Below, piece after piece: positions 25,693 to 61,886 of a stretch of 64,000 nucleotides of DNA. The DNA lies in contig JAFGRY010000051.1 of assembly GCA_016934955.1 (NCBI GenBank), positions 11,211-75,210 of the forward strand, given 5' to 3'. Source of the stretch: a bacterium (GTDB lineage Bacteria > Zhuqueibacterota > QNDG01 > JAGLOF01). Below the pieces are notes generated by a model. It was not told the DNA's origin and ran no database searches. It saw only the letters and a program-made list of their open reading frames with translations. The position numbers and the translations under genes are program-made. How positions within the stretch are numbered: position 1 is the first letter of the stretch; every line of letters starts with the position of its first letter.

Positions 25693-26778
25693 CTATGTGG
25701 ATCCGGCTCCCATTCTTGTTTTCAGTTTCCTGATGAACGGGCCGGCCATTCCGTCACGTCCGCTCCCGGGCAGTCTCAAGATAAAATCAGCATTTACCCG
25801 TCTCACAGCTGTGAATCCCCAGTGAGGATCCATCGGCGGCGGCACCAGTCCGCAGAACACCCATATGAAACCGGCATCGTGAAGCTGCTGGAAGAGCAGT
25901 CTTCCGAATTGATGCCTGGGACAGGCAAACGCGGTTACTTTCTTGACCGGAAGTTTTTCCTCAATTGCCGCTTTTGAACGGCGGACCTCTCTGCGCAGGC
26001 GCTCCAGCTGCTGTGCCTCCGATTCCAGTACACCGCCCGGGCCATTCCCTGCCTGAAACATACGGGACCGCTTCAGCACCTCTTTTTTCATTCCGGTTCC
26101 GGCTGCTGACAGGCGGGTGCCTTCCTCCCGATACACGTTCTGAAGCCACTCTTCCAGATTACCATTACTGATGAATCTTCGCCTGTCCGAGAGTCCAGAT
26201 GCAAATTCATACACCGGTGTTCCATACGGCGGTCTTTTCACCGGCAGGCCTTCATCAGCGGTAAGAATGGGCACTTCCTTTTTAAACACGTCGGCGATCT
26301 GCGGATCGTATAAATCGACAACCTTTCCCGACACGGGAATATTCGCATGCGAGTAAGAATGCGATTGAAAATCAATGACACCTGACCGCTCCATTTCTTC
26401 AGCCTGTTTCCAGGTTATATATCCCGGCTCATCGATCCAGTATGGGCTGATGAACGCCACAGCCCTGAAACCATATTTCATCAGCAGCGGATACACGATA
26501 GTATAAAGATCACGATACCCGTCATCGAAGGTCAGCAACACATTTTTTTTTGACAGGTCCGCAGCCTCACTAGTATCTGAATCAAGGTCAGCGATAATCG
26601 CTGTTTGATATCCATTGTTTTTCAGATGCGCAAGCTGCCGCGAAAAGACAGCTTTCTCTGTATGATGACAATAAAACACCGGCATCTCCCGACCTGTCCG
26701 GCTTCCGAACACAAACCCGGGATAATATCCCTTGAACGCCGCCTTCAGCATACCGCCCATTTCCAATAAGCCGTTCAC
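25693..26778 (-). CDS. Polysaccharide deacetylase (NodB homology, CE4)
   Basis: It has LLTFDDGYRDLYTIVYPLLMKYGFRAVAFI and the His motif FQSHSYSHANI. Confidence 0.8.
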   Translation of the reverse strand: MNGLLEMGGMLKAAFKGYYPGFVFGSRTGREMPVFYCHHTEKAVFSRQLAHLKNNGYQTAIIADLDSDTSEAADLSKKNVLLTFDDGYRDLYTIVYPLLMKYGFRAVAFISPYWIDEPGYITWKQAEEMERSGVIDFQSHSYSHANIPVSGKVVDLYDPQIADVFKKEVPILTADEGLPVKRPPYGTPVYEFASGLSDRRRFISNGNLEEWLQNVYREEGTRLSAAGTGMKKEVLKRSRMFQAGNGPGGVLESEAQQLERLRREVRRSKAAIEEKLPVKKVTAFACPRHQFGRLLFQQLHDAGFIWVFCGLVPPPMDPHWGFTAVRRVNADFILRLPGSGRDGMAGPFIRKLKTRMGAGST

Positions 26779-28187: not shown

Positions 28188-29191
28188 CCGCCTCCCTGAT
28201 CTCTGCTATCGAGAAGTGAGTCGAGTATTCCCGATTCGACCAGATAGGTGTTATATTGAATCCGCCCCCGTACATTCAGATGGGAGTCATCGACAAACTC
28301 TGTATAATCGTAATACCGCGGCGTGTTGTCGATGACATTAAAATCGAAACTGCCGACGAAGGCATTCCAGCGCCCTTTTGTATAGGTTTCGTAAACAGGC
28401 TCCACCGCTTCATGCAACGGAAGTAGCAGGAATGCTTTCCGGACATGATGTCGCTCGAGAAGATCGATCATTCTTCTGAAATACTGTATTTCCGTTGGAT
28501 CGAGCTCCCGATTTTCCGAGGAGATCTCGGCATCCCAGCGGAAGACCGCCGTCCTGCTGTATATTCTTTCCGGATCTCTCGACCAGATCATAAATCCATG
28601 GTTCTGCCGGTACAGTCTGGAAATTTCCGGCATCGTCTGCATCCCGAAAAACGGAAAGGGTTTATTGAAAACCAGTGTATCTTTGCCAGCGCATGTCAAG
28701 GCCATGCGGTAAAGCGTCTTGCGGTTTCTTTCAAGATTTCTGATAAAATACTCACCCATATAGCCGGTTTCAACCAGATCGAGAAAGCGAAAATGCCGTA
28801 CTGTGGGCAGGCCGAAATGGCCGAAAAGGGTTGGCGGGAAAAATTGTATGCTCGGAACAAAAGAGAGAACGACGATTCCCGGCTTCAGATGATTCTCAAG
28901 ATAATATTTTAAAAGATAATATCCTTCGAGGAACGAAAGACCGCCGCCGCTTATATTCGAATAGGTGAAATGACGATGCTGCTGCAGAATACCCATATCG
29001 ATGCCGCTGATAAGCCGTGAGTCCCCGAGAAATACAATATCATCCGGTGTATGCTTTTCCATTCTCACCTGGTCGAACGCATAATTGAGTGTCAGCCGGA
29101 TAACAGCCTGCTCATTCTCCGGATCAAAATAAACCGAGACCAGGGGAACGGCAAGCAGCGTGATGAGCAGTATTTTCACAAATAATTTCAT
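28184..29191 (-). CDS. SGNH/DUF1574-like periplasmic partner of MBOAT (DltD/AlgX-type role)
   Basis: It has an N-terminal signal anchor, a GDS block (VFLGDSRLISG) and a C-terminal D-x-x-H (DDSHL). It lies immediately downstream of the MBOAT gene. Confidence 0.5.
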   Translation of the reverse strand: MKLFVKILLITLLAVPLVSVYFDPENEQAVIRLTLNYAFDQVRMEKHTPDDIVFLGDSRLISGIDMGILQQHRHFTYSNISGGGLSFLEGYYLLKYYLENHLKPGIVVLSFVPSIQFFPPTLFGHFGLPTVRHFRFLDLVETGYMGEYFIRNLERNRKTLYRMALTCAGKDTLVFNKPFPFFGMQTMPEISRLYRQNHGFMIWSRDPERIYSRTAVFRWDAEISSENRELDPTEIQYFRRMIDLLERHHVRKAFLLLPLHEAVEPVYETYTKGRWNAFVGSFDFNVIDNTPRYYDYTEFVDDSHLNVRGRIQYNTYLVESGILDSLLDSRDQGGG

Positions 29192-34948: not shown

Positions 34949-36619
34949 CTACCATGTCCTGTACACGGAAGCGGCATCCGCCAGTTCCTTGCTCACCTGT
35001 GACTTGCTCCAGTTAAGTTCTCTGGCCGCGATCTTCGCGCATTCGCTGAGCAGATCGTCGCCCGGGTGCCCCGCCGAACCGGCATCGGTGCGTCTGTGCA
35101 CGATATCGGACAGTGTCACCGCCATCTCATTACGCACGGCATGAATGATTTCGGCTTTCAGCAGTTCGGCGCTGCCGCTTACCGTCTTATCCTTTCCGCG
35201 GATCTCCCCCGCGAGATCGAGAATGCCGGGATACTCGGTACCATAGAGCATGACCAGCCGCTGTATCACCCGCTCCGGCAAATCAGCCGGTTTCGTCCGC
35301 AGTGCGCCGTTCAGAAATTCATCGAAGAGAACGATATCGCCGCCTGCAAGGGGCACGCGATGAGAGATCGATTTCGCTAATTTCCGCCCGAGCTTGCTTC
35401 CCGCCAGATCGACGGTTTTTCGGGCGACGTCTCTGGCAGTCGTGTATTTCACCCCGATGACGCTCAGCAGACCTTTGACACCGTATTTTTTCTCATAATC
35501 GGTGAATCCGTAGTGCTTTTTCAGCACCACCTCACCTGTTTTGGGATTGAGACCCTCCATGGGGAGAAATCCCTTGTAATACCCGGTCACTTCTTTCCGC
35601 TGCACCGGCTCCCCCGGATACCCGGCGTTTATCTCCGAGAGAAAGTCCTGCACCTCTGATTCCATGACCTTCATATCATTCGGATGCCCGTTATAGGGGA
35701 GATGGTAGGTGCCGATGATCGTCTTGTCCCGCCAGGGAGTCATAAAGAGCACATGCCTGCCCCGGTAACGGGAGCCGTTCGTCAGCACGTTGGTGAACGG
35801 CGCGTAGATTCCCGCCGCGGTTTCCGGCAGCAGCCGGCGATTTACAATGAGATTCATGGCCGTGGACAGCTGTATCTGGGGCGTGTCCGAACCCGAGAAT
35901 CCATTAATGTCATCGACCCAGGCACCCGCGGTATTGATGACCATATGGCCGCGAATCTCGAACCGGTCCCCGGCGATCCGGTCCTCGGCCCTGACCCCGA
36001 CCACCCTGTCTTCTTTCCGGATGACTCCCGACGCCCGCACATAGTTGGCGGCTCTCGCGCCGCCGGCGACAGCCGATTTGACAAAAGCCAGCACCAGCCG
36101 CTCAGAACTGTACATCTGCGCGTCTGTCCAGCAGGCGCCGCCGTTCACTCCTTTGGGATCGATCCCCGGGACCAGGCGCAGACACTCCTTCGCGGAGACC
36201 ACTTTGCCGGCGGGAATGGTCTTCTCCGGATCTCCCAGACGGTTGCGGTCGGCGCTGAGCACATCATTGACCAGCAGCCCCGCGGTCATCACCAGCGGTC
36301 CTTTCATCATGAATCCGCAGGTCGGCATGACGCAGGGCAGGGGATGAATGAGATGAGGTGCCAGATGCATCATGATCCGCCGTTCCCGCACTGATTCCCG
36401 GAAACGCTTGATGTCCAGCTGCTGCAGGTACCGCAGCCCGCCATGGACGATCTTCAGACTGTTTGCGGAGGTTCCCGACCCGAAATCACCCTGGTCGACA
36501 ATAGCGACGGAGAGTCCCCGCTGCACTGCATCCAGGGCCGTTGCCGCGCCGTAGATACCCGCGCCGACAATGATCAGGTCGAATGTTTCGTTTGTCAATA
36601 GATCCAGATTTCTTTTCAT
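34949..36619 (-). CDS. FAD-dependent glycerol-3-phosphate dehydrogenase/oxidase-like flavoprotein (GlpD/GlpO family)
   Basis: It has FDLIIVGAGIYGAATALDAVQRGLSVAIVDQGDFGSGTSANSLKIVHGGLRYL and a long C-terminal helical domain, as in GlpD. Confidence 0.75.
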   Translation of the reverse strand: MKRNLDLLTNETFDLIIVGAGIYGAATALDAVQRGLSVAIVDQGDFGSGTSANSLKIVHGGLRYLQQLDIKRFRESVRERRIMMHLAPHLIHPLPCVMPTCGFMMKGPLVMTAGLLVNDVLSADRNRLGDPEKTIPAGKVVSAKECLRLVPGIDPKGVNGGACWTDAQMYSSERLVLAFVKSAVAGGARAANYVRASGVIRKEDRVVGVRAEDRIAGDRFEIRGHMVINTAGAWVDDINGFSGSDTPQIQLSTAMNLIVNRRLLPETAAGIYAPFTNVLTNGSRYRGRHVLFMTPWRDKTIIGTYHLPYNGHPNDMKVMESEVQDFLSEINAGYPGEPVQRKEVTGYYKGFLPMEGLNPKTGEVVLKKHYGFTDYEKKYGVKGLLSVIGVKYTTARDVARKTVDLAGSKLGRKLAKSISHRVPLAGGDIVLFDEFLNGALRTKPADLPERVIQRLVMLYGTEYPGILDLAGEIRGKDKTVSGSAELLKAEIIHAVRNEMAVTLSDIVHRRTDAGSAGHPGDDLLSECAKIAARELNWSKSQVSKELADAASVYRTW

Positions 36620-50241: not shown

Positions 50242-51924
50242 TTAATGTTTAAAATGTCTCAGGCCGGTGAGCGCCATGGCGACGCCAAGTTCATCACAGG
50301 CGGCAATGGAATCCCCGTCCCGCCTGGATCCTCCGGGCTGCACAATATAGCGAATTCCGAACGAGGCCGCTTCTCTCACCGTATCGTCAAACGGGAAAAA
50401 TGCATCAGATGCCATGACCATGGCCGCCATCTGCTCTGCGATGTACTGCTCAGCCGGCACGGTGATTTTTTTTCGCTCATATTCAATCATCACATTTTCC
50501 CTGGCTTTTGTCACCGCCAGCTTACGGAGAGAATCCACCCTGTTGGGCTGACCCGCGCCCATACCCATTACCTGGAAAACACCCGGACGGTACGCTCTGG
50601 CGAGCACAATCGCATTCGATTTCGTGTGCTTGCAGGCTTTGCAGGCAAAAAGGGCGAGTGCTTCACCGTTTTTGCCGAACTGCTTTTCTGTGACGACGTT
50701 GAAAAAATCGAACACGCGCAGATCCCGCTCCATTTCAAGCAGTCCACCGGTAATTTTCCGATAGGTAAACCGGTCGGGAGTGCCGGTCCTGTCAAGCGGG
50801 CCGGTTTTCAGCAAGCGTATGTTCTTCACGGCGGTAAGCAATTCCAGGGCATCATCAGTAAAGTCGGGAGCGACGATCACTTCGACAAATTTGCCGGGAA
50901 CCTGCTGCGGCACCAGCGCACCGTCCCGGTAGACATAACTGGTATGCTCCCGGTCGCTCCCCTTCAGAAACCCGGCGAATTCATGGTCAACGACGGTATT
51001 GGCGGCGATTACCGAACCGAACGCAGACACCGGATCCCCCTCCCACGCCCGCTCAAGCGCCTCGGCGCCACTCTTTCCGGTGGCGAATCCGCACGGATTG
51101 GTATGTTTGATCACCGCCACACCCGGACCACCGTCGAGCTCCTTCACCGCCTCAAAGGCCGCATCGGCGTCTACGTAGTTATTGTAGGACATCGCTTTGC
51201 CATGGATCACTTCCGCTGCGGCGACACTGGGCTCGGATACCGCCGGATCTCTGAAAAAGGATCCCGCCTGATGGCTGTTCTCCCCGTATCTCAGCGTTCT
51301 GCCCGTGGTGTACGCGAGCCGGCGCACCGGCTCACCGGCAAGGACCCGGGAAAGATAGGTGTCGATCGCCGCGTCATAGTCGGCGGTTCTGCGAAACGCC
51401 TTGACTGCCAGCCGCTGCCTCAGCTCCAGACTCGTGCCGCCGTTCTCCTTGATCTCTTCCAGAACGGCATCATAGTCATCCGGATCGGAGACGACTGTCA
51501 CCGAGCGAAAATTCTTGGCGCTGCTTCGCAGCATCGAAGGACCGCCGATGTCGATTTGTTCAACCGCCTCCTCCAGGCTGACATCAGGGGCGGCAACAGT
51601 CCGCTCAAAGGGGTAGAGGTTCACCGCGACGATGTCTATCCATTCGATTCCCTGGACCTCGGCTTCCCTGCGGTCCCCTTCATGCTCCCGGCGTCCCAGC
51701 AGCGCACCGTGAATCGCGGGATGGAGCGTTTTAACCCGGCCGCCCATCATCTCCGGGAAGCCGGTTACGGACTCAACCGGCACAACCGCAATCCCGTTTT
51801 CCTGCAGCAGCCGGGCGGTGCCGCCGGTGGAAAGAATCTCATATCCCAGGGAAGCGAGCTCCCCGGCAAAGGCCACGATACCGGTTTTATTTGAAACGCT
51901 TAAAAGAGCACGTCCTTTTTTCAA
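50242..51924 (-). CDS. purH: Bifunctional AICAR transformylase / IMP cyclohydrolase
   Basis: It has RALLSVSNKTGIVAFAGELASLGYEILSTGGTARLL and GGRVKTLHPAIHGALL, with a full-length AICARFT domain. It starts at a TTG preceded by AGGAGGAG. Confidence 0.92.
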   Translation of the reverse strand: MKKGRALLSVSNKTGIVAFAGELASLGYEILSTGGTARLLQENGIAVVPVESVTGFPEMMGGRVKTLHPAIHGALLGRREHEGDRREAEVQGIEWIDIVAVNLYPFERTVAAPDVSLEEAVEQIDIGGPSMLRSSAKNFRSVTVVSDPDDYDAVLEEIKENGGTSLELRQRLAVKAFRRTADYDAAIDTYLSRVLAGEPVRRLAYTTGRTLRYGENSHQAGSFFRDPAVSEPSVAAAEVIHGKAMSYNNYVDADAAFEAVKELDGGPGVAVIKHTNPCGFATGKSGAEALERAWEGDPVSAFGSVIAANTVVDHEFAGFLKGSDREHTSYVYRDGALVPQQVPGKFVEVIVAPDFTDDALELLTAVKNIRLLKTGPLDRTGTPDRFTYRKITGGLLEMERDLRVFDFFNVVTEKQFGKNGEALALFACKACKHTKSNAIVLARAYRPGVFQVMGMGAGQPNRVDSLRKLAVTKARENVMIEYERKKITVPAEQYIAEQMAAMVMASDAFFPFDDTVREAASFGIRYIVQPGGSRRDGDSIAACDELGVAMALTGLRHFKH

Positions 51925-51966
51925 AACTCCTCCTTACATCTCTTCTCTCAGACGGTAACACTGAAG

Positions 51967-52608
51967 TTACGATTTTTCAGGGAGAATTTCAACCCTATTG
52001 TTCGAAATCCGGACCCTGCCGTCGGCAAAACAGGCAAGAACCGCGGGGTAGAGCCTGTGCTCCACTTCCAGCACCCGCTTCGCCAGTACCTCCGGTGTAT
52101 CCCCGCTCAGCACCGGAACACATTCCTGGGCGATGACCGGACCGTGATCATAGTGCTCGTCAACCAGATGGATGGTCACTCCCGTCACTTTGCAGCCGTA
52201 ATCGAGCACGGCTTCGTGCACATGACGGCCGTACATGCCCCTTCCGCCGAATGCCGGTAGCAGCCCGGGGTGAATATTCGTTATCCGCTGCGCATAGAGC
52301 GAGATCAGTTCCGGCGGAATTTTTTTCATATACCCTGCCAGCGCGATGAAATCGATATCATGCTCATGCATGAGAGCGATCAGCCGGGTAACATAGGCCT
52401 CACGCCGGTCGAACTCCTTTCGGCACACCGCCGCCACGGGAATGCCAAAGGACTCCGCGACGGCAATGGCTCCCGCCTCCGGATCGCTGACGACAAGCAG
52501 CCCGATATCCGCTTTGAGCGTACCTCGATCGGCGGCTTCGGCGATCGCTGTAAAGTTCGAGCCCCTGCCGGAGGCGAAAACGGCGATTCTGAGCCGCTTC
52601 ACACTCAA
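51967..52608 (-). CDS. purN: Phosphoribosylglycinamide formyltransferase
   Basis: It has RIAVFASGRGSNFTAI, NIHPGLLPAFGG and GVTIHLVDEHYDHGPVIAQ. Confidence 0.9.
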   Translation of the reverse strand: MSVKRLRIAVFASGRGSNFTAIAEAADRGTLKADIGLLVVSDPEAGAIAVAESFGIPVAAVCRKEFDRREAYVTRLIALMHEHDIDFIALAGYMKKIPPELISLYAQRITNIHPGLLPAFGGRGMYGRHVHEAVLDYGCKVTGVTIHLVDEHYDHGPVIAQECVPVLSGDTPEVLAKRVLEVEHRLYPAVLACFADGRVRISNNRVEILPEKS

Positions 52609-53891
52609 TACCTCCCCTGGAGGACATCGTAATGCGGTGTCGTCAGGTAGTACTCGCCGAATCCCTGGTCATCGACAAAGATGAACTCCCGGTTGATGCT
52701 CCTGTAGTACCAGATCTCATAGGGTTTTGAATCGGGCTCAAAAGGATGCCGGTCAACCGCGTCCGGCGCACCCAGAATGATATACACTCTCCCCCGGTCC
52801 GTTTTCCAGCCGGCGGTAAATTTTCCAAAGACCCGGTTGGCAAAGTCGACCCGGCGATAGTACTCCTCCATGAGTTCGTTGGCAGGTGTGGTCGGAGTGG
52901 GATCCCTGTCGGCCCAGAACTCGAAGAATTGTTTTTTCCGTTCGTCCGTCGATACATCTTTGAAGACGCGTATCTCCTCAGCTGCGGCGATATAGGAAAG
53001 CTGATCGATCGCATCGTCGAGGCTGGTGGAAAGCGCGGGCATTCCCCGGTAATGGAGCGTAAAGGAGCGGACACGTTCGACTTTATTCCGCCGTCTGCCT
53101 GATTCGACGATGAACTTGTACTGTCCGTTCATCGATTCACTGTCCATGAGAAATGTTCTCACCGTCCGGAAACCGGTCAGGGGCACGGTTTCCTCATTCT
53201 CAAACACGGTCTTGTCGGCCGCGTCGACGATCCGGTAAACAAGATCAAGGGATTCCTGCTGCTGATAGGCATACACTTCGAATTCCAGCTCATGCTGCTT
53301 CTCCTCCTTCTCGAGGATGCTGGAGACCGCGAACCGGTCGTCACCCGACCCGGAAACCGCACCGGGCACCCGGAAACGAAGGCTGCTCAGAGAAAACGGG
53401 CCCTTAAAATAATCGGGAACGCGGATGTTGACGGTACGATAGGCCGTCTTGGCAAGATCGATGTCGAGCACCGATATCTCCACTGTATAGTCTCCGGGCT
53501 CCACTGTAAAAACAAGCCAGGTGGTATCGAACTGAAAATTCGAAGTGGTCTTGGTATACGTTTTCGTCGATACTTTTTTCCGGATGGTTCTGACCCCGGT
53601 CTGAACCTGCTTCGCATTGAATACCGACACCGACAGCTCATAGCGCGCTTCGTAGAGCGAATCATTTTTGACAAACTGCAGCCGGTCATAGGCGATCTGC
53701 GCGCCCACATGCAGCTCGATGGTCACTGAATCCGCACCCAGACGGGACGCGGTGGTCGTGAAAAACCACGGCAGCGGTCCCGTATCGTCATATGCGGTCC
53801 GTTCCGGGAGCTGTGCATACAGGCCTGATATCGACAGCAGGAGGCCTGCCAGTACCGATACTGCTCCCATCCATTTCGTTTTCTTTGTCAT
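52605..53891 (-). CDS. GWxTD domain-containing secreted protein
   Basis: It has a signal peptide and the C-terminal block FFEFWADRDPTPTTPANELMEEYYRRVDFANRVFGKFTAGWKTDRGRVYIILGAPD, which contains GWKTD. It overlaps both neighbours by 4 nt. Confidence 0.8.
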   Translation of the reverse strand: MTKKTKWMGAVSVLAGLLLSISGLYAQLPERTAYDDTGPLPWFFTTTASRLGADSVTIELHVGAQIAYDRLQFVKNDSLYEARYELSVSVFNAKQVQTGVRTIRKKVSTKTYTKTTSNFQFDTTWLVFTVEPGDYTVEISVLDIDLAKTAYRTVNIRVPDYFKGPFSLSSLRFRVPGAVSGSGDDRFAVSSILEKEEKQHELEFEVYAYQQQESLDLVYRIVDAADKTVFENEETVPLTGFRTVRTFLMDSESMNGQYKFIVESGRRRNKVERVRSFTLHYRGMPALSTSLDDAIDQLSYIAAAEEIRVFKDVSTDERKKQFFEFWADRDPTPTTPANELMEEYYRRVDFANRVFGKFTAGWKTDRGRVYIILGAPDAVDRHPFEPDSKPYEIWYYRSINREFIFVDDQGFGEYYLTTPHYDVLQGRY

Positions 53892-55228
53892 GATACACTA
53901 TCCTCCTTTACGGCTGTACCGGTCATATCATAGTAGCTGTACCCCGTAATCTTCACCCGAATGATCTCGCCCGGGGTATGGGCGCCGTCGATCCATACCG
54001 TCTGATCGACCTCCGGGGCATCTCCTCTTGTTCTTCCGTAATACAGCTGCTGACTGCTGTCGTATCCGTCGACGATAACCTCCTGCAGACTGCCTGCCAT
54101 CTCCGCATTTAAACTCTCTGAGATGCGCTGCTGTTCCGACATCAGCCTGCGGTGGCGCGAGAGCGCCGTCCTCCTGGGAACCTGATCCTCAAAGCTGAAG
54201 GCGGGGGTGCCTTCTTCCCGGGAAAACACAAAGGCCCCCAGGCGATTGAATCTGAAATCTTTGACAAATGCAAGCAGTTCATTGAAATCCGACGCCCGCT
54301 CACCGGGGAATCCGACGATACAGGTCGTTCTGATCACGATATCGGGCAGAACAGCCCTCATCTTCCGCAGCAGTGCTGTGATATCCGCTCTCCTCTCCCT
54401 TCTCCCCATCCGTCGCAGCACCCGATCCGCGATATGCTGGAGCGGAATGTCGGCATAGGCGCAGATTTTTTCTTCCGCTGCCATGATCTCCAGCAGATCG
54501 TCACTGACCGAACCGGGATACAGATACATGATCCGAATCCAGTCGATTCCGTCTATCCGGACAAGCATGTTCAGCAGACCGCTGAGAGTGGGGCCTCCGG
54601 GAAGATCCCGGCCGTAGGCGGCGGTGTCCTGGCCGATCAGAATCAGTTCCCGGGCACCTGCCGCGGCAAGCGCCTCACTCTCCTCAACCAGCGACTCGGG
54701 TGTGCGGCTCCTGAATGCGCCTTTGATTCCCGGAATCGCACAGAACGTACAGCGATGGTCGCATCCATCCGCGATTTTCAGGTATGCCGTGTGCGCCGGA
54801 CCGAACCGGTGGCGTCTGACATAGGCGTCCGGCGACCAGTGAATGGTTTCTCCGGACAGATACCGTCCCATCTCCTGAAACGCCTCGATGCCGAAATAGG
54901 CATCCACTTCCGGGATTTCCCGCTGCAGGTCTTCCCGGTAGCGCTGGGAAAGACATCCCCAGACGACGACCTTCTTGCCCGGATCCTCTTCTTTGAGCCT
55001 GACCGCTTCCAGGATCGTATTGATAGATTCCTGTTTGGCATCCTCGATAAAGCCGCAGGTATTGACAACCACGACGTCCGCATCGGCCGGATCGTCGATG
55101 ATCCGCAGCCGCCGGCCCTTGAGCAGTCCCGCCAGCACTTCGGAATCGACTTCATTTTTCGAACATCCCAGGGTGATAAACGCGGCTTTTCGACATTGCC
55201 GCGGGGACGACGGTGTGTTCTCACTCAC
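53888..55228 (-). CDS. rimO: Ribosomal protein S12 methylthiotransferase (radical SAM MTTase with TRAM domain)
   Basis: It has FITLGCSKNEVDSE, VNTCGFIEDAKQESI, the radical SAM cluster motif CDHRCTFCAIP and a C-terminal TRAM domain. The start is placed at the GTG at 55228, overlapping the ftsY stop by 8 nt. The ORF-track start at 55363 lies inside ftsY. Confidence 0.82.
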   Translation of the reverse strand: MSENTPSSPRQCRKAAFITLGCSKNEVDSEVLAGLLKGRRLRIIDDPADADVVVVNTCGFIEDAKQESINTILEAVRLKEEDPGKKVVVWGCLSQRYREDLQREIPEVDAYFGIEAFQEMGRYLSGETIHWSPDAYVRRHRFGPAHTAYLKIADGCDHRCTFCAIPGIKGAFRSRTPESLVEESEALAAAGARELILIGQDTAAYGRDLPGGPTLSGLLNMLVRIDGIDWIRIMYLYPGSVSDDLLEIMAAEEKICAYADIPLQHIADRVLRRMGRRERRADITALLRKMRAVLPDIVIRTTCIVGFPGERASDFNELLAFVKDFRFNRLGAFVFSREEGTPAFSFEDQVPRRTALSRHRRLMSEQQRISESLNAEMAGSLQEVIVDGYDSSQQLYYGRTRGDAPEVDQTVWIDGAHTPGEIIRVKITGYSYYDMTGTAVKEDSVS

Positions 55229-56126
55229 CGAAGAATCCGTCCACGAATGCTTCCGGATCGAAGGGCACCAGATCGTCCATCCCTTCACCCAGCCCCGCCC
55301 ATTTGATCGGGATTTGGAGCGTGTTGAACACGGAAACGACAATACCGCCCCGGGCCGAACCATCCAGTTTTGTCAGCGCGATATCGGTGACACCAACCGC
55401 GTCGCTGAACAATCGTGCCTGGCTCAATCCGTTCTGGCCGGTCGTGGCATCGATCACCAGCAGCACTTCATGGGGAGCGCCCGGCATTCTCCGGTCGAGC
55501 ACTCTCCGTATCTTTTTCAGCTCCTCCATCAGGTTCACTTTCGTGTGCAGCCGGCCCGCCGTATCAACAAGGAGGATATCGGCATTCCGCGCCAGCGCGG
55601 AATCGAGAGCGTCATAGGCGACGGCAGCGGGATCCGACCCTGTCTTCTGCAGCACCACGTGGACTTTCGCCCGCTGTCCCCACTCCTCCAGCTGCTCAGC
55701 GGCAGCCGCCCGGAATGTATCTGCCCCCGCAAGCACCACCTTCTTTCCCTCAGCTGCATACCGCACTGCCAATTTACCGATAGTCGTGGTCTTTCCCGTG
55801 CCATTAACCCCCACGACAAGGATCACCCGGGGGTTCTCCAGGCGTTCTTCAGGAGATGCAGCCGCAACGATGCCGCTGATCTCCGACTTGAGGATCCGCC
55901 TGATGCAGGTCCGGGGATCATCACAGCCGTCGAGCCCGGACCGCACTTTGTCCACAAGGGCAAGCGCCGTATCGACTCCGAGATCGGCTTCAATCAGCAC
56001 TTCTTCAAGCTCGTCGAGCAGCGAATCGTCGACCCTGCCGCTCCTGAATACGGAGGCGATGCGATTCAGGAATCCCGTTCTGCTCTTTCGTAATCCTGCG
56101 TTCCATTTCTGTTTTCGATCTGCCAT
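55221..56126 (-). CDS. ftsY: Signal recognition particle receptor (short NG-only form)
   Basis: It has VILVVGVNGTGKTTTIGKLA, LLVDTAGRLHTK and TKLDGSARGG. Confidence 0.92.
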   Translation of the reverse strand: MADRKQKWNAGLRKSRTGFLNRIASVFRSGRVDDSLLDELEEVLIEADLGVDTALALVDKVRSGLDGCDDPRTCIRRILKSEISGIVAAASPEERLENPRVILVVGVNGTGKTTTIGKLAVRYAAEGKKVVLAGADTFRAAAAEQLEEWGQRAKVHVVLQKTGSDPAAVAYDALDSALARNADILLVDTAGRLHTKVNLMEELKKIRRVLDRRMPGAPHEVLLVIDATTGQNGLSQARLFSDAVGVTDIALTKLDGSARGGIVVSVFNTLQIPIKWAGLGEGMDDLVPFDPEAFVDGFFGE

Positions 56127-56163: not shown

Positions 56164-56724
56164 TCAGCACTGCCTGGACAGCTGCAGCGTGAAGGCCTTG
56201 TAGTAGGCCCAGGTGGACCAGGCGGTCAGCATGAGGCCGGCGACGAGCATCAGAAGGGCCCAGGGCTGCACTTCCAACACGTAGAGCAGCACGGCGACCG
56301 CCACCGCGAATGCGGAGGTTTTACCCGGTCTGGCTGATTCCATCACGACCTTTCGGCCCCGGATTATCAGCAGTCCGCCCAGGAGCACCGCGAGTTCCCG
56401 CGCTGCGAGAATTGCAGCTCCCCACACCGGGAAATAGTAACTGTCTGAAAAGACAAGCCAGCCGGCAACGGACAGAACCGTCAGTTTGTCGGCCAGGGGA
56501 TCGAGGATTCTTCCCAGGTCCGACCGCTGGTTCAGCCGCCGCGCCGCCAGGCCGTCGAGAAAATCGGTGGCCGCACTTGCCAGCATCCAGGCCACCGCCT
56601 CCAGCCGTGCCCCGCGGGCAAGAGCGGCCAGGATCGGCGGGATCATGAAAAACCGGAGTGCGGTCAGCAGGTTTGGAATGGTGACGATTCTTTTTTCAGG
56701 AAGACTGTCACGGTGTGATTCCAT
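56164..56724 (-). CDS. CDP-alcohol phosphatidyltransferase (PgsA-like)
   Basis: The motif D-x2-DG-x2-AR-x8-G-x3-D-x3-D is present as DFLDGLAARRLNQRSDLGRILDPLADK. The protein is 186 aa with four to five TM spans. Confidence 0.8.
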   Translation of the reverse strand: MESHRDSLPEKRIVTIPNLLTALRFFMIPPILAALARGARLEAVAWMLASAATDFLDGLAARRLNQRSDLGRILDPLADKLTVLSVAGWLVFSDSYYFPVWGAAILAARELAVLLGGLLIIRGRKVVMESARPGKTSAFAVAVAVLLYVLEVQPWALLMLVAGLMLTAWSTWAYYKAFTLQLSRQC

Positions 56725-56738
56725 AGACGATACCCGAT

Positions 56739-57911
56739 TTAGGTGAATATTTTTGCGGCCTGGAGAATCAGTTTCGGATGTCTGACCAGGGCCGCCCTGA
56801 AGATCTGAAACGCCGAACGCCTTTCCGGCGGAACCGCGGCGAGCAGTTCTGCAGTGCGATTCAATTCCTCGTCACTGAATGCATCAACGACCTGCTTGAT
56901 CCGATAGGAGAAACGGCACTGCCGCCCTTCGGTTTTCTCCCACTCTTTCTCATAGGCCGACAATGCGTGCCGGGTCAGACGTCCCTTCCTGACCGCCCGG
57001 GCCGCTGTTTCGCCGGCGATCCGGCCCGCGATCATGGCGTTGACAATGCCCCCTCCGGTGAGAGGGTTGGCCTGGCGGGCGGCGTCTCCAACCAGCATAA
57101 TGCCGTCACCGGTAAGCCGACTGAGCGGCGGCCCGACAGGGACGCCCCCGGCCACTGCCGCCAGAACCGAGGCCCCGGGAAACCGTGTTTCGATAAAATG
57201 ATCGAGATAGTCCGCAGGTTTCCGGGCCGCGGCGAATTCGCCCGTGATACCCAGGCCGACGTTTGCCGTATGCGCGTTCTTGGGGAATACCCATGCGTAT
57301 CCGCCCGGGGCGATCATTGTGCCGAGATGGAACTCCACTCGTCCGGGATCGACATCGATGCCGGTGAGTGTTTTCTGCACGCAGGATTCCATCAGGGCCG
57401 GCGGCAGACGGGTATCGAGACCCGCCCAGCGTCCCACTCGGGATTCAGTCCCGTCGGCACCGATAACGATCCTCGCCTTCAGGTCGAGAGTCCTGCCGCC
57501 GCATCGGCACCGGACACCGCATACCCTGCCGCCCTCAAGCAGCAGCCCGCACACGAACGCATTTGTCTGCAGCCTCGCGCCCGCCTGCACGGCGCGTTCG
57601 GCCAGGTCACTGTCAAAAATCCGCCGGTGTAAAATATATCCCCTGTCATCGGGGTAGGCATCGATGACCGTTCCGTTCGGGGCGACAAACCGGGCCCCGG
57701 TTATGGTCGCGGCGATCCAGCGGGCATCCACACTCCCTGCGGCCAGTTCCAGCCCCTGAACGGAGACGCCCTCGGCGCACCTGACCGGAATTCCCACCTC
57801 CCTGTCCTTTTCGAGCATGAGCACAGACATGCCGTTTTCCGCGGCCGCCTTGGCGGCCCAGGACCCTCCCGGCCCGGCGCCGGCAACGATTATATCATAT
57901 GCAGCGGTCAC
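56739..57911 (-). CDS. Geranylgeranyl reductase family flavoprotein
   Basis: It has FAD motifs YDIIVAGAGPGGSWAAKAAAENG, VRCAEG and LVGDAARQANPLTGGGI, plus YAWVFPKNAHTANVGLG (Y-x-W-x-F-P-x8-G-x-G). The start is placed at the GTG at 57911, giving a 4-nt GTGA overlap with the ferredoxin stop. Confidence 0.85.
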   Translation of the reverse strand: MTAAYDIIVAGAGPGGSWAAKAAAENGMSVLMLEKDREVGIPVRCAEGVSVQGLELAAGSVDARWIAATITGARFVAPNGTVIDAYPDDRGYILHRRIFDSDLAERAVQAGARLQTNAFVCGLLLEGGRVCGVRCRCGGRTLDLKARIVIGADGTESRVGRWAGLDTRLPPALMESCVQKTLTGIDVDPGRVEFHLGTMIAPGGYAWVFPKNAHTANVGLGITGEFAAARKPADYLDHFIETRFPGASVLAAVAGGVPVGPPLSRLTGDGIMLVGDAARQANPLTGGGIVNAMIAGRIAGETAARAVRKGRLTRHALSAYEKEWEKTEGRQCRFSYRIKQVVDAFSDEELNRTAELLAAVPPERRSAFQIFRAALVRHPKLILQAAKIFT

Positions 57912-58081
57912 GCCTGTCTTTCCAGGGCGCCCACGGGACAGATATCCACACAGTCGCCGCAGCCGGCACACAGCTCTGAATCGATATGCAGCTGCACCTG
58001 TTCAAGGGTAATTGCATCGGTCGGGCAGACGCCGACACAGGTTCCGCAGAAATCACAGAATTCGAGAAGGACATCAATCAT
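57908..58081 (-). CDS. 2x[4Fe-4S] ferredoxin (57 aa)
   Basis: Two C-x2-C-x2-C-x3-CP clusters are present (CDFCGTCVGVCP and CAGCGDCVDICP). The ATG at 58081 is preceded by AAGGAGG about 11 nt upstream. The ORF-track start at 58162 would overlap the UbiA gene. Confidence 0.8.
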   Translation of the reverse strand: MIDVLLEFCDFCGTCVGVCPTDAITLEQVQLHIDSELCAGCGDCVDICPVGALERQA

Positions 58082-58100
58082 CTGTTTCCCCGACCTCCTT

Positions 58101-59051
58101 TTAATTCCTGAAACTTGGATAAGAGATATCAAACCGCCGTTTATAGTACCACTTTGAAACAAAGAAAACAGTGACCACCGGAATCAGATAGAGCGGATGG
58201 AGAACAGTGATTCCAGCCGCGAGCGCCAGTACCGAGTATTTGGTTGCCCGCACCACATCCTTCTCCTCACCCGTTACCGCACTGTACACAAAAAAGGGCA
58301 GCATGATTCCGCCGCAGATAAGCAGGAGACGATCGCCTGTCAGCGCCGCGACCGCCAGCATGAAAAGTTCAAGTATCAGAGCCCAGGCGGCTGTTTTCTG
58401 CGTTCCGTACTTGACACCGAACGTTATCTTGCCGCTCGCCTCATCCCCCTGCCGGTCGGGCAGCGTTGTGTTGAGATAGACGGCCCCGCCCGCCAGGCCG
58501 TAGGCGGCGGCCCTGGCCGGGAGCAGCGGGTCTCCGCCGCCCGCGTACCACCCGATGCTGTATATGAGAACGCCCGCCCCCGCGTTGGTGACGATACCCA
58601 TGATGGGGTGGTCTTTCCAGGATGCGGGGGGGTAGTTGTAACACCAGCCTGACAGGACGAGCAGCGCCAGAATCAGCAGCCCGAACCCGGTCCCGGCGAT
58701 AAACCCGCCGGCCGTGCCGGCCGCGGCAAGCAGTACCGCCTGAATCAGGGCCTTACGCCTGGATATGAGCCCTTCGGAAACAAGGAACAGTTTGCCGTTT
58801 ATCCTGTCTGTTTGAATGTCATTGAGCTGGTTGAGGATAAACACCGCCCCAACGGTAAGCGTCAGGGGAATGGCCGCCAGGAACAGGTGCAGCGGGCCGC
58901 CGGTATACATGTCTGTCGCACCGGTGGTTCTCCCGCCGGAATGCCCTGCCAGAAAAAAGGTCCACACCGGATAGAAGAGCGTCGGCCTGAGAAGAAACAG
59001 ATAATCCAGCCAGCCGGGCACCCTGGGAAAAGAACCTCCCGGGTTACTCAT
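58101..59051 (-). CDS. UbiA-family membrane prenyltransferase
   Basis: It has about 8-9 TM spans and both Asp-rich motifs: NQLNDIQTD (N-x3-D-x3-D) and DRQGD (D-x3-D). The start is placed at the ATG at 59051, overlapping the purF stop by 8 nt; the ORF-track start is 59210. Confidence 0.78.
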   Translation of the reverse strand: MSNPGGSFPRVPGWLDYLFLLRPTLFYPVWTFFLAGHSGGRTTGATDMYTGGPLHLFLAAIPLTLTVGAVFILNQLNDIQTDRINGKLFLVSEGLISRRKALIQAVLLAAAGTAGGFIAGTGFGLLILALLVLSGWCYNYPPASWKDHPIMGIVTNAGAGVLIYSIGWYAGGGDPLLPARAAAYGLAGGAVYLNTTLPDRQGDEASGKITFGVKYGTQKTAAWALILELFMLAVAALTGDRLLLICGGIMLPFFVYSAVTGEEKDVVRATKYSVLALAAGITVLHPLYLIPVVTVFFVSKWYYKRRFDISYPSFRN

Positions 59052-60441
59052 GCTGGGTCTTCCTGAACGCTTCCCTGATACTGACCGGATACTTGCCGCT
59101 GAAACAGGCGGTGCAGTATCCGTCTCCCTTTCTCGAGACAGCACTGCAGAGCCCCTCAACGGAGAGATAGCCGAGACTGTCCACATCGAGATGCCGGCGG
59201 ATCTCCTCAACGCTCATTGAGGTCGCGATCAGTTCCTCCCTGGTGGGGAAATCCATCCCGTAAAAACAGGGATGCTTGATGGGAGGGCTGCTCACACGGA
59301 CGTGCACCTCCCGCGCCCCGGCCTTCCTCAGCAGCTGGGTGAGCACTTTCAGGGTCGTTCCCCGGACAATGGAGTCCTCCACGACGACGACACGCTGATC
59401 CTTGAGAACCCCGGCCACAGGATTGAATTTCACCTTCACATTGAAATGCCTGATTTTCTGCAGCGGCTGAATGAAGGTCCTCCCGATATAGTGATTTCTG
59501 ATCAGCCCCAGCTCAAACCGTATCCCCGATTCATTCGCGAATCCAAGGGCGGCGGTGTTGCTCGAATCGGGTACCGAGATGACGATATCCGCATCGACCG
59601 GGTGTTCCATAGCCAGGCGCTTGCCCAGTTTGCGACGTGTCTTGTCCACGCAGTCACCGAAAATGCGGCTGTCGGGACGGGAAAAATAGATAAATTCGAA
59701 AATGCAGTGCGCCTTCCCGGTGGAGGCGGCAAAGGATTCCGATGTCAGGCCGTTTTCATCGATAATGAGCATCTCGCCGGGGTCAACATCCCTGATATAA
59801 TCAGCACCGATCAGATCCAGCGCACAGGTCTCGGAAGCGACGACATATCCATCGTCGAGTTTCCCCAGCGCCAGCGGTTTGAATCCTTTGGGATCGCGGG
59901 CCGCGATCAGCTTGTCCCGGGTCATGATCACCAGAGAATAGGCGCCCTTGATCCGGGAGAGGGCATCCCGTATTTTCGCCACAAGCCCGTCCGCTTTGGA
60001 GCGGGCTATCAGGTGCAGAATCGGTTCACTGTCGGTAGTGGAACGGAAAATCGCCCCTTCTTCCTGCAGCATGTCGTGAATCGCCCGGGAATTCACCAGA
60101 TTGCCATTGTGTCCCAGGGCGATGGGGCCGTCCTTCGTGTTGACCAGCAGCGGCTGAACATTGTGAATGTCATTCGACCCCGTCGTTGAATAGCGGTTAT
60201 GGCCGATCGCCAGCCGCCCCTTCAGCTTCTCGATAACGGCCCGGTCATTGAACACGTCATTGACCAGGCCGAGACCGTTGTGCTCATAAATCCGCGTCCC
60301 GTCTGAAGAGACGATACCGGCGCTCTCCTGTCCCCGATGCTGCAGCGCGTAGAGACCCAGATAGGCGATCTCGGCCGCGGCATCATGATTGCATACGCCG
60401 ATAATACCGCAGAATTCCCTAGGTTTGTCTTCCATCTCCAC
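59044..60441 (-). CDS. purF: Amidophosphoribosyltransferase (Fe-S type, with propeptide)
   Basis: A 10-residue leader precedes the CGIIGV nucleophile. It also has DSIVRGTT (PRPP loop) and C-terminal Cys residues (HPCFYG, GYCTACFSGKYP). Confidence 0.92.
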   Translation of the reverse strand: MEMEDKPREFCGIIGVCNHDAAAEIAYLGLYALQHRGQESAGIVSSDGTRIYEHNGLGLVNDVFNDRAVIEKLKGRLAIGHNRYSTTGSNDIHNVQPLLVNTKDGPIALGHNGNLVNSRAIHDMLQEEGAIFRSTTDSEPILHLIARSKADGLVAKIRDALSRIKGAYSLVIMTRDKLIAARDPKGFKPLALGKLDDGYVVASETCALDLIGADYIRDVDPGEMLIIDENGLTSESFAASTGKAHCIFEFIYFSRPDSRIFGDCVDKTRRKLGKRLAMEHPVDADIVISVPDSSNTAALGFANESGIRFELGLIRNHYIGRTFIQPLQKIRHFNVKVKFNPVAGVLKDQRVVVVEDSIVRGTTLKVLTQLLRKAGAREVHVRVSSPPIKHPCFYGMDFPTREELIATSMSVEEIRRHLDVDSLGYLSVEGLCSAVSRKGDGYCTACFSGKYPVSIREAFRKTQHE

Positions 60442-61509
60442 TCAGTGATCCTTTTTTCCAGTGATAACGATCGGATTGCTGTAAATCCAGCCTCTTCCCT
60501 TTTTAAAGACTTCTACGCGATACACGCCGGGCTCAGAAGTCGTCATGCCCAGTCTGTCGCCCGACACCTTCTGAATGAGACGGCCGTCCTGAAGCAGACG
60601 GATTTTCCCTTTCGCCGGGACCATCGTTTCCAGCCTGACGCTGCCGCCTCCCGGGATTCGGCTTCCCATCTCATAGAGATCTCCCCCCTTCAGCGCCCGG
60701 AACCGGAACCCCCGGGCATCGCCCAGCGAATAGTTGGAAACGAAGCAGCACCCCTGTTCGAGCGCGGCAAACACCGCTTTTTCCGCTTCCGCGAAAGGCA
60801 GGCATCCATCATCTCCACAGATCGGCCTTTCGGTCAGGATGTGCGTCCTGATTGATTTGAACTGGACCTTGTAGGGATATATCTCGACCGGAATAAATCC
60901 GAAAAATCTTAGTGAAAACGCGTGCACGTCAATGCCGCCGATGCCGATCACCCGTCTGTCTGCGTTCAGCCGGTCCCAGCGCCGCAGGATATCCCATTCG
61001 GGAAATCTGATGGACCGGAGCGGATGCCAGATGCGCCAGAAAATATTCGCCCGGGTTACGCCCTCCATCCACTCCGACAGCTGATTCCAGATCTCGATGC
61101 CGTCGAACCCTTCCACATCCCAATCCGTCCAGGGATAGGGAGGATATGCTTCGGAAAAATTTCTCTTTTCCGCGGGATGGGCGATTATGCCGAATCCTCC
61201 TCTTTCCCGCACCCGGGAGACATAGTCAGCGGCGGTACTCCCCCCCACTTCCCTGTCGAGCCTGAAAGCAAGATAGTGATTCTTGTCGTCTCTGTCATTG
61301 ATCTCGTACCCGATCAGCACCAGCACCCTGCCGTACCAGCCTTCCAGTCCCGACCGCTTTGGTTCAAGGGTATTGTGGTCCGTGAACATGAGAAAATCAA
61401 GTGACTTGCTTCCGGCGATCCCGGCAATTTCGGGAATCGGCAGAGAGCCGTCCGAAACGTTCGAATGCAGATGCACCGCACCGACCGATTCATGCATATC
61501 ACCTACCAT
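60442..61509 (-). CDS. PHP-domain metallophosphoesterase-like protein
   Basis: It has VHLHSNVSDGS and FTDHNT PHP motifs, further His blocks (IIAHP, IDVHAF) and a C-terminal beta-rich domain. Confidence 0.7.
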   Translation of the reverse strand: MVGDMHESVGAVHLHSNVSDGSLPIPEIAGIAGSKSLDFLMFTDHNTLEPKRSGLEGWYGRVLVLIGYEINDRDDKNHYLAFRLDREVGGSTAADYVSRVRERGGFGIIAHPAEKRNFSEAYPPYPWTDWDVEGFDGIEIWNQLSEWMEGVTRANIFWRIWHPLRSIRFPEWDILRRWDRLNADRRVIGIGGIDVHAFSLRFFGFIPVEIYPYKVQFKSIRTHILTERPICGDDGCLPFAEAEKAVFAALEQGCCFVSNYSLGDARGFRFRALKGGDLYEMGSRIPGGGSVRLETMVPAKGKIRLLQDGRLIQKVSGDRLGMTTSEPGVYRVEVFKKGRGWIYSNPIVITGKKDH

Positions 61510-61886
61510 ACCAGCAGCAGACCTCCGATGACGACCCCCAGAAAATCGGCGGCGAGATCCTTCCAGCTGAAACGATTGTTCGCCGAGCGATGATCGTTCA
61601 GCTCCTTGAAAACGCCCAGGGAAAGGCTGAAAACAGCTCCCGCAAGCCGGCTGTCATGACGCGGGCGCTCGAATCGATTATGCAGGAGCCAGCCGGCGGC
61701 GCCGCAGAGAAGCATGCTCGCGGCCGCGTGTTTCGCTTTATCGCTTCCCAGCCAGCGGTCGGCCCGGAACACGGCGGCCGGCTCCGCATCCGGTGTGCGC
61801 CTCTCCGGAACCGGAGGCCCGGCTGTCTGGGCATGCAGGGCTCCGGCCAGAACCGTGACCGCGAGTATGGCGCCCGCCAGGTTCAT
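61503..61886 (-). CDS. YfiM/DUF2279-like small exported protein
   Basis: It has a signal peptide plus the blocks GSDKAKHAAAS, GVFKELNDHR and FSWKDLAADFLGV, which resemble E. coli YfiM as I remember it. Confidence 0.5.
   Translation of the reverse strand: MNLAGAILAVTVLAGALHAQTAGPPVPERRTPDAEPAAVFRADRWLGSDKAKHAAASMLLCGAAGWLLHNRFERPRHDSRLAGAVFSLSLGVFKELNDHRSANNRFSWKDLAADFLGVVIGGLLLVW

Follow-up and report, generated by a model that had tools for sequence, protein, structure and literature searches.

A 64-kb stretch of contig JAFGRY010000051.1 (assembly GCA_016934955.1, Zhuqueibacterota), referred to here as the window, carries on its minus strand a 2.9-kb module of four co-oriented genes between purF and ftsY, which encode a membrane prenyltransferase of the UbiA superfamily, a ferredoxin (Fdx), a geranylgeranyl reductase (GGR) and a CDP-alcohol phosphatidyltransferase (CDPOH). 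The prenyltransferase belongs to an unnamed UbiA family, for which we use the working label FAM. We propose, with a probability of roughly 45%, that the module serves the synthesis of a saturated isoprenoid membrane lipid, in which FAM would O-prenylate a glycerol-phosphate lipid, Fdx and GGR would saturate the chain, and the PgsA-like CDPOH would add the head group. This proposal rests on the repeated association of FAM with GGR and Fdx, and in Poribacteria also with GGGPS and DGGGPS, on the envelope-lipid neighbourhoods in which FAM occurs (bamA-skp-lpxD-FAM and dxr-rseP-FAM), and on the structures matched by the FAM profile, which are those of AfUbiA, the chlorophyll synthase ChlG, DGGGPS and DPPR synthase and not those of aromatic C-prenyltransferases. 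It also has a precedent, since bacterial GGGPS and DGGGPS give archaeal-type phosphatidylglycerol (PG) lipids in E. coli with the help of the host head-group enzymes (PMC7852524).

A tightly packed four-gene set between purF and ftsY

As read from the sequence, the minus-strand order was purF, FAM, Fdx, GGR, CDPOH and ftsY, with the frames overlapping or almost touching.

59044..60441, minus strand: purF, amidophosphoribosyltransferase (TIGR01134, 533 bits); upstream neighbour, in translational overlap with FAM
58101..59051, minus strand: FAM, UbiA-superfamily membrane prenyltransferase (PF01040), 316 aa
57908..58081, minus strand: Fdx, 2x[4Fe-4S] ferredoxin, 57 aa (Fer4, E=8e-17; FdxA_fam, 46 bits)
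56739..57911, minus strand: GGR, FAD-dependent reductase of the archaeal lipid-reductase type, 390 aa, GTG start
56164..56724, minus strand: CDPOH, PgsA-like CDP-alcohol phosphatidyltransferase (PF01066), 186 aa
55221..56126, minus strand: ftsY (TIGR00064, 332 bits); downstream boundary of the module

The purF stop and the FAM start overlap by 8 nt, sharing the sequence ATGAGTAA, and the ATG of FAM is embedded in the 3' end of purF (...CATGAGTAA). The FAM stop codon TAA is followed by 19 nt, including the ribosome-binding site AAGGAGG, before the Fdx ATG, the Fdx TGA overlaps the GTG start of GGR as GTGA, and spacers of 14 nt and 37 nt separate GGR from CDPOH and CDPOH from ftsY, respectively. 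An earlier note on this DNA had reported the 8-nt overlap, the 19-nt gap with its AAGGAGG, the GTGA and the 14-nt gap, all of which we read in the sequence, and every motif that it quoted for the UbiA protein, Fdx and GGR was found as well. A scan for promoters and terminators between 52 and 63.5 kb returned nothing beyond shuffled expectation and no intergenic terminator within the module. Besides the small Fdx, the window contains a single UbiA-family gene, a single GGR and a single CDP-alcohol transferase, and MenA, GGGPS and DGGGPS are absent from its 64 kb. Long plus-strand open reading frames (ORFs) across the module (e.g. 54152-55306 and 56778-57632) had no family matches, while the minus-strand genes are the conserved ones, and these ORFs were therefore regarded as antisense shadows of GC-rich genes. 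The four genes are thus a real, tightly packed and widely conserved set.

FAM is a distinct orphan clade of the UbiA superfamily

FAM scored 81.2 bits against PF01040 (cut-off 34.2), which places it in the UbiA superfamily, and both Asp-rich motifs are present (N74-Q-L-N-D78-I-Q-T-D82 and D199-R-Q-G-D203). Its AlphaFold (AF2) model (predicted local distance difference test score, pLDDT, 93) has the multi-helix UbiA fold and matched the structures 4TQ3, 6M31, 8DJK, 4OD4 and 8J8K in Foldseek with a probability of 1.00 and template-modelling (TM) scores of 0.58-0.74. The Archaeoglobus fulgidus enzyme AfUbiA (4TQ3) was the best PDB match both by fold and by sequence, and MjDGGGPS was the second by fold. 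When the FAM profile was searched against PDB chains, AfUbiA (74 bits), chlorophyll synthase (56 bits), MjDGGGPS (46 bits) and DPPR synthase (35 bits) were recovered, but no UbiA, MenA, COQ2 or UBIAD1 at E<=1; the relatives matched thus include O-prenylating or phosphate-acceptor enzymes and no aromatic C-prenyltransferase.

All named subfamilies of the superfamily left FAM far below their NCBIfam cut-offs. It scored 38 bits with the archaeal prenyltransferase model PRK12884 (cut-off 269), 22.3 bits with DGGGPS (NF009521/NF009522/NF009512; cut-off 296), 30 bits with chlorophyll synthase (TIGR01476 / NF005742; cut-offs 212 and 313), 29 bits with HPT (cut-off 226), 26.5 bits with MenA (cut-off 102), 18.9 bits with CyoE (cut-off 210) and 18 bits with DPPR synthase (cut-off 207), and it did not match the ubiA_proteo model. 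The same was true of 83 diverse FAM members, whose best E-values were only 1e-20 to 1e-24, with 3e-16 as the best value of any of them on the DGGGPS models. We also built a neighbour-joining tree with 200 bootstraps, which is small, with few references, three of them partial sequences; in it FAM was monophyletic in 192/200 bootstraps (96%) and sister to AfUbiA (82%), MjDGGGPS grouped with the second UbiA protein of the Poribacteria loci described below in 188/200 bootstraps (94%) and not with FAM, and UbiA, MenA and CyoE of E. coli lay outside the FAM clade, as did ChlG. The earlier note had asked where the protein would be placed and had implied that it might be a DGGGP synthase. The NCBIfam scores and the tree put it outside the MenA, UbiA and CyoE clades, and they do not support the DGGGP synthase identity (22 bits against 296; its own clade at 96%, with a separate DGGGPS clade at 94%). 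FAM is therefore a distinct orphan clade, apart from DGGGPS, MenA, UbiA, CyoE and ChlG.

An exhaustive profile search returned 389 representatives of the family (50%-identity clusters) at E<1e-30, of which the top 150 were all full-length matches with more than 235 bits. The signature NQxxDxxxDxxNxK was present in 247/257 collected members, and other positions were near-invariant too (Y138-x3-P142-x3-K146, T195-x3-D199-x2-G-D203 and a C-terminal YYxxRFxxxYP). FAM lacks the D-x-x-N-x-P-x-R-P loop of DGGGPS: the N-x-P-x-R-P that follows motif 1 in DGGGPS and chlorophyll synthase is replaced by N85-x-K87-L-F/Y-L across the family and reads N85-G-K87-L-F-L in the present protein, with K87 kept in 81/83 diverse members and the Arg position occupied by F, Y or L in 75/83. 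The missing loop had been pointed out in the earlier note, where it was taken as a hint of an atypical acceptor; it turned out to be a hallmark of the whole family, and the replaced loop fits that hint.

By mutagenesis, R22, N68, D72, K146, D198 and D202 were identified as the residues of AfUbiA that bind geranyl diphosphate (GPP) and Mg (PMC4106721). Their counterparts in FAM are R22, N74, D78, K146, D199 and D203, while D82 and Y138 correspond to AfUbiA D76 and Y139, and each of these eight diphosphate/Mg positions was kept in at least 78/83 diverse members (>=94%). Given this conservation, FAM looks like a catalytically intact prenyl-diphosphate enzyme that should bind a diphosphate substrate and be active.

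The ferredoxin and an archaeal-type reductase form a conserved pair

GGR clearly belongs to the geranylgeranyl reductase family (TIGR02032, 209.4 bits, cut-off 158.8; PF22578 GGR_cat, 87.6 bits, cut-off 27), and it carries the GAGPGG motif for flavin adenine dinucleotide (FAD), RCAEG with the catalytic Cys, and YxWxFPx8GxG in the form Y205AWVFPKNAHTANVGLG. None of the equivalog models (NF041160, NF041080, NF041385) was reached: the best, that of the Thermoplasmatales digeranylgeranylglycerophospholipid reductase, gave 237.8 bits against a cut-off of 780, which makes GGR a close relative of the archaeal lipid reductase but not its equivalog. The Thermoplasma lipid reductase structure 3OZ2 aligned over the full length (E=1e-68, ~45% identity), whereas the BchP/ChlP model (TIGR02023) gave only 124.1 bits (cut-off 343.3). 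As to the reductase's placement, which the earlier note had proposed to check, the protein is thus not within BchP/ChlP and lies closest to 3OZ2.

Fdx is a minimal 2x[4Fe-4S] protein with two CxxCxxCxxxCP motifs. The Methanosarcina GGR is reported to require its neighbouring ferredoxin (Isobe 2014), and a small Fdx gene adjoins GGR here in the same manner, with the GTGA overlap in the window, adjacency in 46/60 loci of relatives and a fusion in one Poribacteria-type locus (L012), where a single 510-aa protein (7304-8836) contains the GGR part from about residue 85. Fdx and the archaeal-type GGR are therefore a conserved pair, fused in one lineage, and the partnership suggested by the earlier note is backed by this fusion; Fdx is probably the electron donor of GGR.

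The fourth protein, CDPOH, scored 110.9 bits with PF01066 (cut-off 22), with its catalytic motif Dx2DGx2ARx8Gx3Dx3D intact at residues 54-79. Its best NCBIfam match was pgsA (TIGR00560, 80.4 bits), below the cut-off of 109.1, followed by ClsA (72 bits, cut-off 240), and the archaetidylserine and archaetidylinositol-phosphate synthase models gave at most 28 bits.

The gene order recurs across candidate phyla

We annotated 97 loci of relatives (numbered with the prefix L) by iterative hidden Markov model (HMM) searches. Eighty metagenome loci were the best matches to a pattern from a closer alignment, so near relatives are over-represented among them, and the order FAM-Fdx-GGR was counted in 60 non-redundant loci whose sequence extended 1.6 kb or more beyond FAM on the downstream side. 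Among uncultured bacteria, candidate division KSB1, Ca. Coneutiohabitans and Fidelibacterota supply the close relatives of FAM, together with many entries that carry just the label 'bacterium', and the remoter ones are from Poribacteria and WOR-3/Stahlbacteria. FAM-Fdx-GGR was found in 46/60 loci, down to 34% identity, and in 2 further loci of the 60 a DGGGPS-like gene was interposed. purF lay immediately upstream of FAM in 54/66 loci, and the gene after GGR, visible in 40 loci, was a CDP-alcohol transferase in 29 and ftsY in 11. A wider block, HPPK/dNK ... PHP-purF-FAM-Fdx-GGR-CDPOH-ftsY-rimO-GWxTD-purN, was also conserved. The arrangement thus recurs in dozens of independent loci from metagenomes and metagenome-assembled genomes, and since the genes are conserved as a unit, the outcome that the earlier note had named as fatal to its proposal, an operon conserved in no relative, did not materialize.

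Several lineages showed variants at these sites. DNA methyltransferase or restriction-type genes, TIR-like proteins, a HAD hydrolase and small toxin-antitoxin-like ORFs split FAM/Fdx from GGR in several loci (L057, 8981-11279; L076 and L088, ~9300-12000; L062, 9376-11083; L038, 7383-8770). One lineage carried, in the slot between GGR and ftsY and instead of the CDP-alcohol transferase, a predicted TPR-containing lipoprotein of ~340 aa (L036, 6236-7258; L040, 10521-11537; L043, 10469-11497). WOR-3/Stahlbacteria-type loci contained a 318-aa protein without an NCBIfam match 2 nt past the FAM stop (L094, 8911-9867), and in another lineage (L009/L096) the FAM start overlapped an AMP-binding (acyl-adenylate-forming) enzyme and FAM was followed by a 57-aa ORF without a family match (L096, 9011-9184).

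FAM lies beside GGGPS and a DGGGPS-like gene in Poribacteria

In three Poribacteria-type loci FAM had other surroundings altogether: it came after bamA-skp-lpxD and was accompanied by the following ether-lipid genes.

L011: FAM; DGGGPS-like UbiA, 222 bits (PRK12882); Fdx-GGR present; GGGPS, 226 bits (TIGR01769, cut-off 161.55)
L012: FAM; DGGGPS-like UbiA, 220 bits (PRK12882); Fdx-GGR fused; GGGPS by its PcrB domain
L095: FAM; DGGGPS-like UbiA, 215 bits (PRK12882); Fdx-GGR absent; GGGPS, 218 bits (TIGR01769, cut-off 161.55)

The GGR of L011 (10252-11445) was called as two pieces of 45 and 313 aa, which suggests a frameshift or an assembly error. One further locus had the order dxr-rseP-FAM, a classical envelope-lipid supercluster position. 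The 120 matches listed in a search with the Poribacteria GGGPS as query were from Poribacteria or unnamed, with no KSB1-labelled protein among them. Because FAM sits beside both GGGPS and a DGGGPS-like UbiA in Poribacteria, we regard it as a prenyltransferase additional to the canonical one.

A possible route to a saturated isoprenoid lipid

In the proposed pathway, FAM would attach an all-trans prenyl chain, probably C20 from geranylgeranyl diphosphate (GGPP), to a glycerol-phosphate-based lipid through one of its oxygens. As candidate acceptors we infer a lyso- or monoalkyl glycerophosphate or geranylgeranylglyceryl phosphate (GGGP), the latter from a GGGPS whose gene would lie elsewhere, and the prenylation would probably be an extra step beside the canonical second etherification or a modified form of it. 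Fdx would supply the FAD of GGR with low-potential electrons, and GGR would hydrogenate the double bonds of the chain; a CdsA or CarS encoded elsewhere would carry out the CDP activation, and CDPOH would then add glycerol phosphate, leading to a PG-type head group. Of the earlier note's first hypothesis, the part that called for saturated isoprenoid lipids was strengthened by the Poribacteria clusters of FAM, GGGPS, DGGGPS-like, Fdx and GGR genes, while the part that would make FAM "the" DGGGP synthase was not. A bolder version, which we consider doubtful but worth stating, is that bacterial synthesis of isoprenoid glycerolipids has a third membrane prenyltransferase, so far overlooked, and that FAM is this enzyme in KSB1/Zhuqueibacterota, Fidelibacterota, Poribacteria and WOR-3/Stahlbacteria, where it would make an undescribed lipid (hybrid acyl/phytanyl or extra-prenylated) that is then saturated by Fdx-GGR.

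Several findings weigh against a lipid module of this kind. GGGPS, DGGGPS, glycerol-1-phosphate (G1P) dehydrogenase, CarS/CdsA and a prenyl-diphosphate synthase are all absent from the window, and none of them was found within 8 kb of FAM in 80 KSB1-type loci. FAM occurs without an adjoining Fdx-GGR in L058, L066, L089, L051, L094, L096, L097 and L009, and the CDP-alcohol transferase was not at its position in 11/40 loci; given its bacterial PgsA-like sequence, it may be no more than the housekeeping PgsA of the cell. In FAM, other residues take the place of the Arg-Pro that the DGGGPS/ChlG loop conserves, and the structural study of AfUbiA, its closest characterised relative, did not arrive at an acceptor. 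Finally, the whole block from the PHP-type gene to purN is conserved as housekeeping synteny, so adjacency within it says less about shared function than adjacency in a mobile operon would.

Alternative explanations

FAM could instead be the DGGGP synthase of this lineage, which would make archaeol-type diethers with a GGGPS encoded elsewhere. Of the weak matches of the family, those to DGGGPS models rank with the most consistent (PRK12884 in 82/83 and PRK12882 in 76/83 members), MjDGGGPS is the second-best fold match, and, as no canonical DGGGPS was seen in the vicinity of FAM in KSB1-type loci, FAM might take over its task in them; moreover, GGGPS and DGGGPS homologs were reported in all FCB (Fibrobacterota-Chlorobiota-Bacteroidota) phyla surveyed (PMC6431249). 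We nevertheless consider this explanation unlikely, because the scores reach only a small fraction of the cut-offs (22 against 296; 38 against 269), the FAM clade (96%) is separate from the one in which DGGGPS-like proteins join MjDGGGPS (94%), the N-x-P-x-R-P loop has become N-x-K-L-F-L, and the presence of FAM beside a DGGGPS-like gene in the three Poribacteria-type loci argues for a non-redundant role.

We give comparably little credence to housekeeping synteny without a shared pathway, in which CDPOH would be an ordinary PgsA, Fdx and GGR would saturate some other isoprenoid, and FAM would be unrelated to them. The block HPPK/dNK-PHP-purF-FAM-ftsY-rimO-GWxTD-purN is indeed conserved whole across lineages, and purF overlaps FAM even though the functions of purF, ftsY and rimO clearly have nothing in common; in addition, Fdx-GGR or the CDP-alcohol transferase is missing at the site in some lineages, and restriction-modification or other mobile genes lie between Fdx and GGR in several loci. 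Against it, FAM re-associates with Fdx-GGR, GGGPS and DGGGPS in the different Poribacteria neighbourhood, Fdx and GGR are fused in L012, and the four products are biochemically coherent (prenyl transfer, reduction, electron donation and head-group transfer).

GGR homologs that reduce menaquinone tails exist, and saturated menaquinones are formed through MenJ and through the Archaeoglobus menaquinone prenyl reductase. FAM might accordingly be imagined to prenylate an aromatic head group, of a quinone or a similar compound, with Fdx and GGR saturating the side chain. The family matches the HPT and MenA models weakly, a MenA gene lies ~3 kb downstream of FAM-Fdx-GGR in L068, L082 and L093, after a DinG-like helicase/exonuclease, and AfUbiA, the nearest structure, was studied as a homolog of UBIAD1 and MenA (PMC4106721). 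This explanation appears improbable, however: in L068, L082 and L093 the neighbouring protein is a bona fide MenA that passes TIGR00751 (122-123 bits, cut-off 102), and since a true MenA coexists with FAM, FAM is not a MenA substitute in those loci. Likewise, the FAM profile recovered none of the UbiA, MenA, COQ2 or UBIAD1 chains in the PDB at E<=1, FAM clusters with GGGPS and DGGGPS in Poribacteria, and no quinone-biosynthesis genes are nearby in the window.

Even less convincing is the second hypothesis of the earlier note, that the module tailors the polyprenyl-phosphate carrier for the exopolysaccharide (EPS) locus of the window, by saturation and/or by a DPPR-synthase-like transfer from phosphoribosyl pyrophosphate (PRPP). 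Its attractions are that the window does contain an EPS locus with a Bac_transf initiating transferase, that the PRPP-using purF is the conserved upstream neighbour, that DPPR synthase is a detectable relative (35 bits) and that K87 of FAM aligns with the Lys of the DPPR-synthase loop. But annotation of the window from 26 to 52 kb placed the start of the EPS locus more than 10 kb from the module, past purN, purH, lgt and glgA, and the locus is absent from the conserved block of the relatives. DPPR synthase is the weakest structural relative (NCBIfam 18 against 207 bits), and GGGPS and DGGGPS as companions of FAM speak for glycerol ether lipids and not for glycan carriers, so this hypothesis found no support. 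The last explanation, a UbiA-fold intramembrane terpene synthase that needs no external acceptor and whose product GGR would reduce, is the most improbable: such enzymes keep the same Asp-rich motifs, according to one report (PMC9835599), and FAM has no recognisable acceptor-binding signature, but no search returned a terpene-synthase-type relative and the conserved neighbours are lipid-assembly and not terpenoid-tailoring genes.

Neighbouring genes

60442..61509, minus strand: PHP-type / CehA-McbA-like metallohydrolase (NF038032, 70 bits, cut-off 80; weak PHP match), upstream of purF

This gene lies upstream in many loci and directly before FAM in four, and a 570-aa member of the same NCBIfam family occurs within the Poribacteria-type cluster of L012 (4640-6352); its product could be an accessory lipid phosphoesterase of the module, e.g. 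a phosphatidylglycerophosphate (PGP) phosphatase. Farther upstream, a YfiM-family lipoprotein homolog (61503-61886, minus strand; 63 bits, cut-off 117) and an HDIG-domain protein precede the PHP-like gene, and this order is kept in L008 and L010.

purF is probably syntenic context without a share in the lipid function. Together with purN and purH (50242-52608; purF itself at 59044-60441, minus strand), it flanks the module, ftsY, rimO and the gene for the GWxTD-domain protein, and this interleaving of purine genes with the lipid module is kept in relatives. The rimO ORF (53888-55363, minus strand) overlaps ftsY by 142 nt, with its N-terminal ~58 residues outside the RimO profile, and its true start is probably further downstream. 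In L068 (8405-9808), L082 (13152-14561) and L093 (13199-14578), the MenA protein has an unexplained N-terminal extension of ~160-170 aa. The EPS locus includes a GlpD-like FAD-dependent glycerol-3-phosphate dehydrogenase (34949-36619, minus strand; 223 bits, cut-off 352), whose neighbours are a methyltransferase, AsnB, glycosyltransferases, a Wzx flippase and an MBOAT protein, and two ORFs of 470 and 335 aa (26775-29191, minus strand) without a Pfam match at E<=1e-8.

Comparison with known systems

The closest characterised relative of FAM is AfUbiA (PDB 4TQ3-4TQ6), which was its best match by sequence (74 bits) and by fold (TM 0.65-0.72) and its sister clade (82%), shares all of the diphosphate/Mg-binding residues and likewise does not have the N-x-P-x-R-P loop. 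The two proteins nevertheless have only ~26% identity, the L2-3 loop of AfUbiA is longer, AfUbiA is archaeal and without the NQ..K signature and the C-terminal YYxxRFxxxYP of the bacterial FAM, and FAM has a predicted extra C-terminal helix in the AF2 secondary structure. The search for an acceptor of AfUbiA by those who solved its structure gave no result (PMC4106721), and our literature search found none. If the proposed reading is true, this structurally solved but functionally orphan protein gains a suggested, testable function.

Archaeal-type GGGPS and DGGGPS ether-lipid genes are known from Ca. Cloacimonetes of the FCB group (Villanueva et al. 2021, PMC7852524; Coleman et al. 2019, PMC6431249). 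Like the present module, the FCB sets represent archaeal-type isoprenoid-lipid enzymes in bacteria of or near the FCB superphylum, with GGRs related to euryarchaeal ones and a bacterial PgsA-type enzyme able to finish the lipid, and in Poribacteria FAM shares a cluster with GGGPS and DGGGPS. Unlike those canonical GGGPS plus DGGGPS sets, the module in the window uses another prenyltransferase family and has no GGGPS nearby. Such genes in FCB bacteria bear on the debate about the 'lipid divide', in which homologs of GGGPS and DGGGPS have so far been the basis. Should the product of FAM be a glycerol ether or a hybrid lipid, membranes that mix isoprenoids with fatty acids would arise by an undescribed route in several abundant phyla without cultured members. 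The 2.9-kb module is small enough for direct testing in E. coli engineered for archaeal lipids.

The pairing of a lipid GGR with a small adjoining ferredoxin resembles MA1484 and MA1485 of Methanosarcina acetivorans (Isobe et al. 2014). The organism here is bacterial, though, its GGR is closest to the Thermoplasma enzyme among the models and structures compared, and its ferredoxin dependence is presumed from gene adjacency and fusion. ChlG/BchG with ChlP/BchP offers a second parallel: there, an O-prenyltransferase of the UbiA family works with a reductase of the GGR family, which saturates the transferred C20 chain, and ChlG is the second-best sequence relative of FAM (56 bits); in contrast to that system, there are no photosynthesis genes and both proteins score far below the respective models (FAM 30 against 212-313 bits, GGR 124 against 343). 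The fourth gene resembles bacterial PgsA in its best-named family, its size and its full catalytic motif, but it falls below the equivalog cut-off (80 against 109), and its position right after an isoprenoid reductase is unusual.

In a literature search that covered isoprenoid lipids of KSB1/Zhuqueibacterota and Poribacteria, the arrangement of FAM, Fdx, GGR and a CDP-alcohol transferase was not described. Collectively, the kind of system is known, since isoprenoid lipid genes of archaeal type have been described in the FCB group and bacteria related to it (PMC7852524, PMC6431249), and what is new is a large uncharacterised UbiA family, the order FAM-Fdx-GGR(-CDP-alcohol transferase) that several candidate phyla conserve, and the clusters that FAM forms with GGGPS and DGGGPS in Poribacteria.

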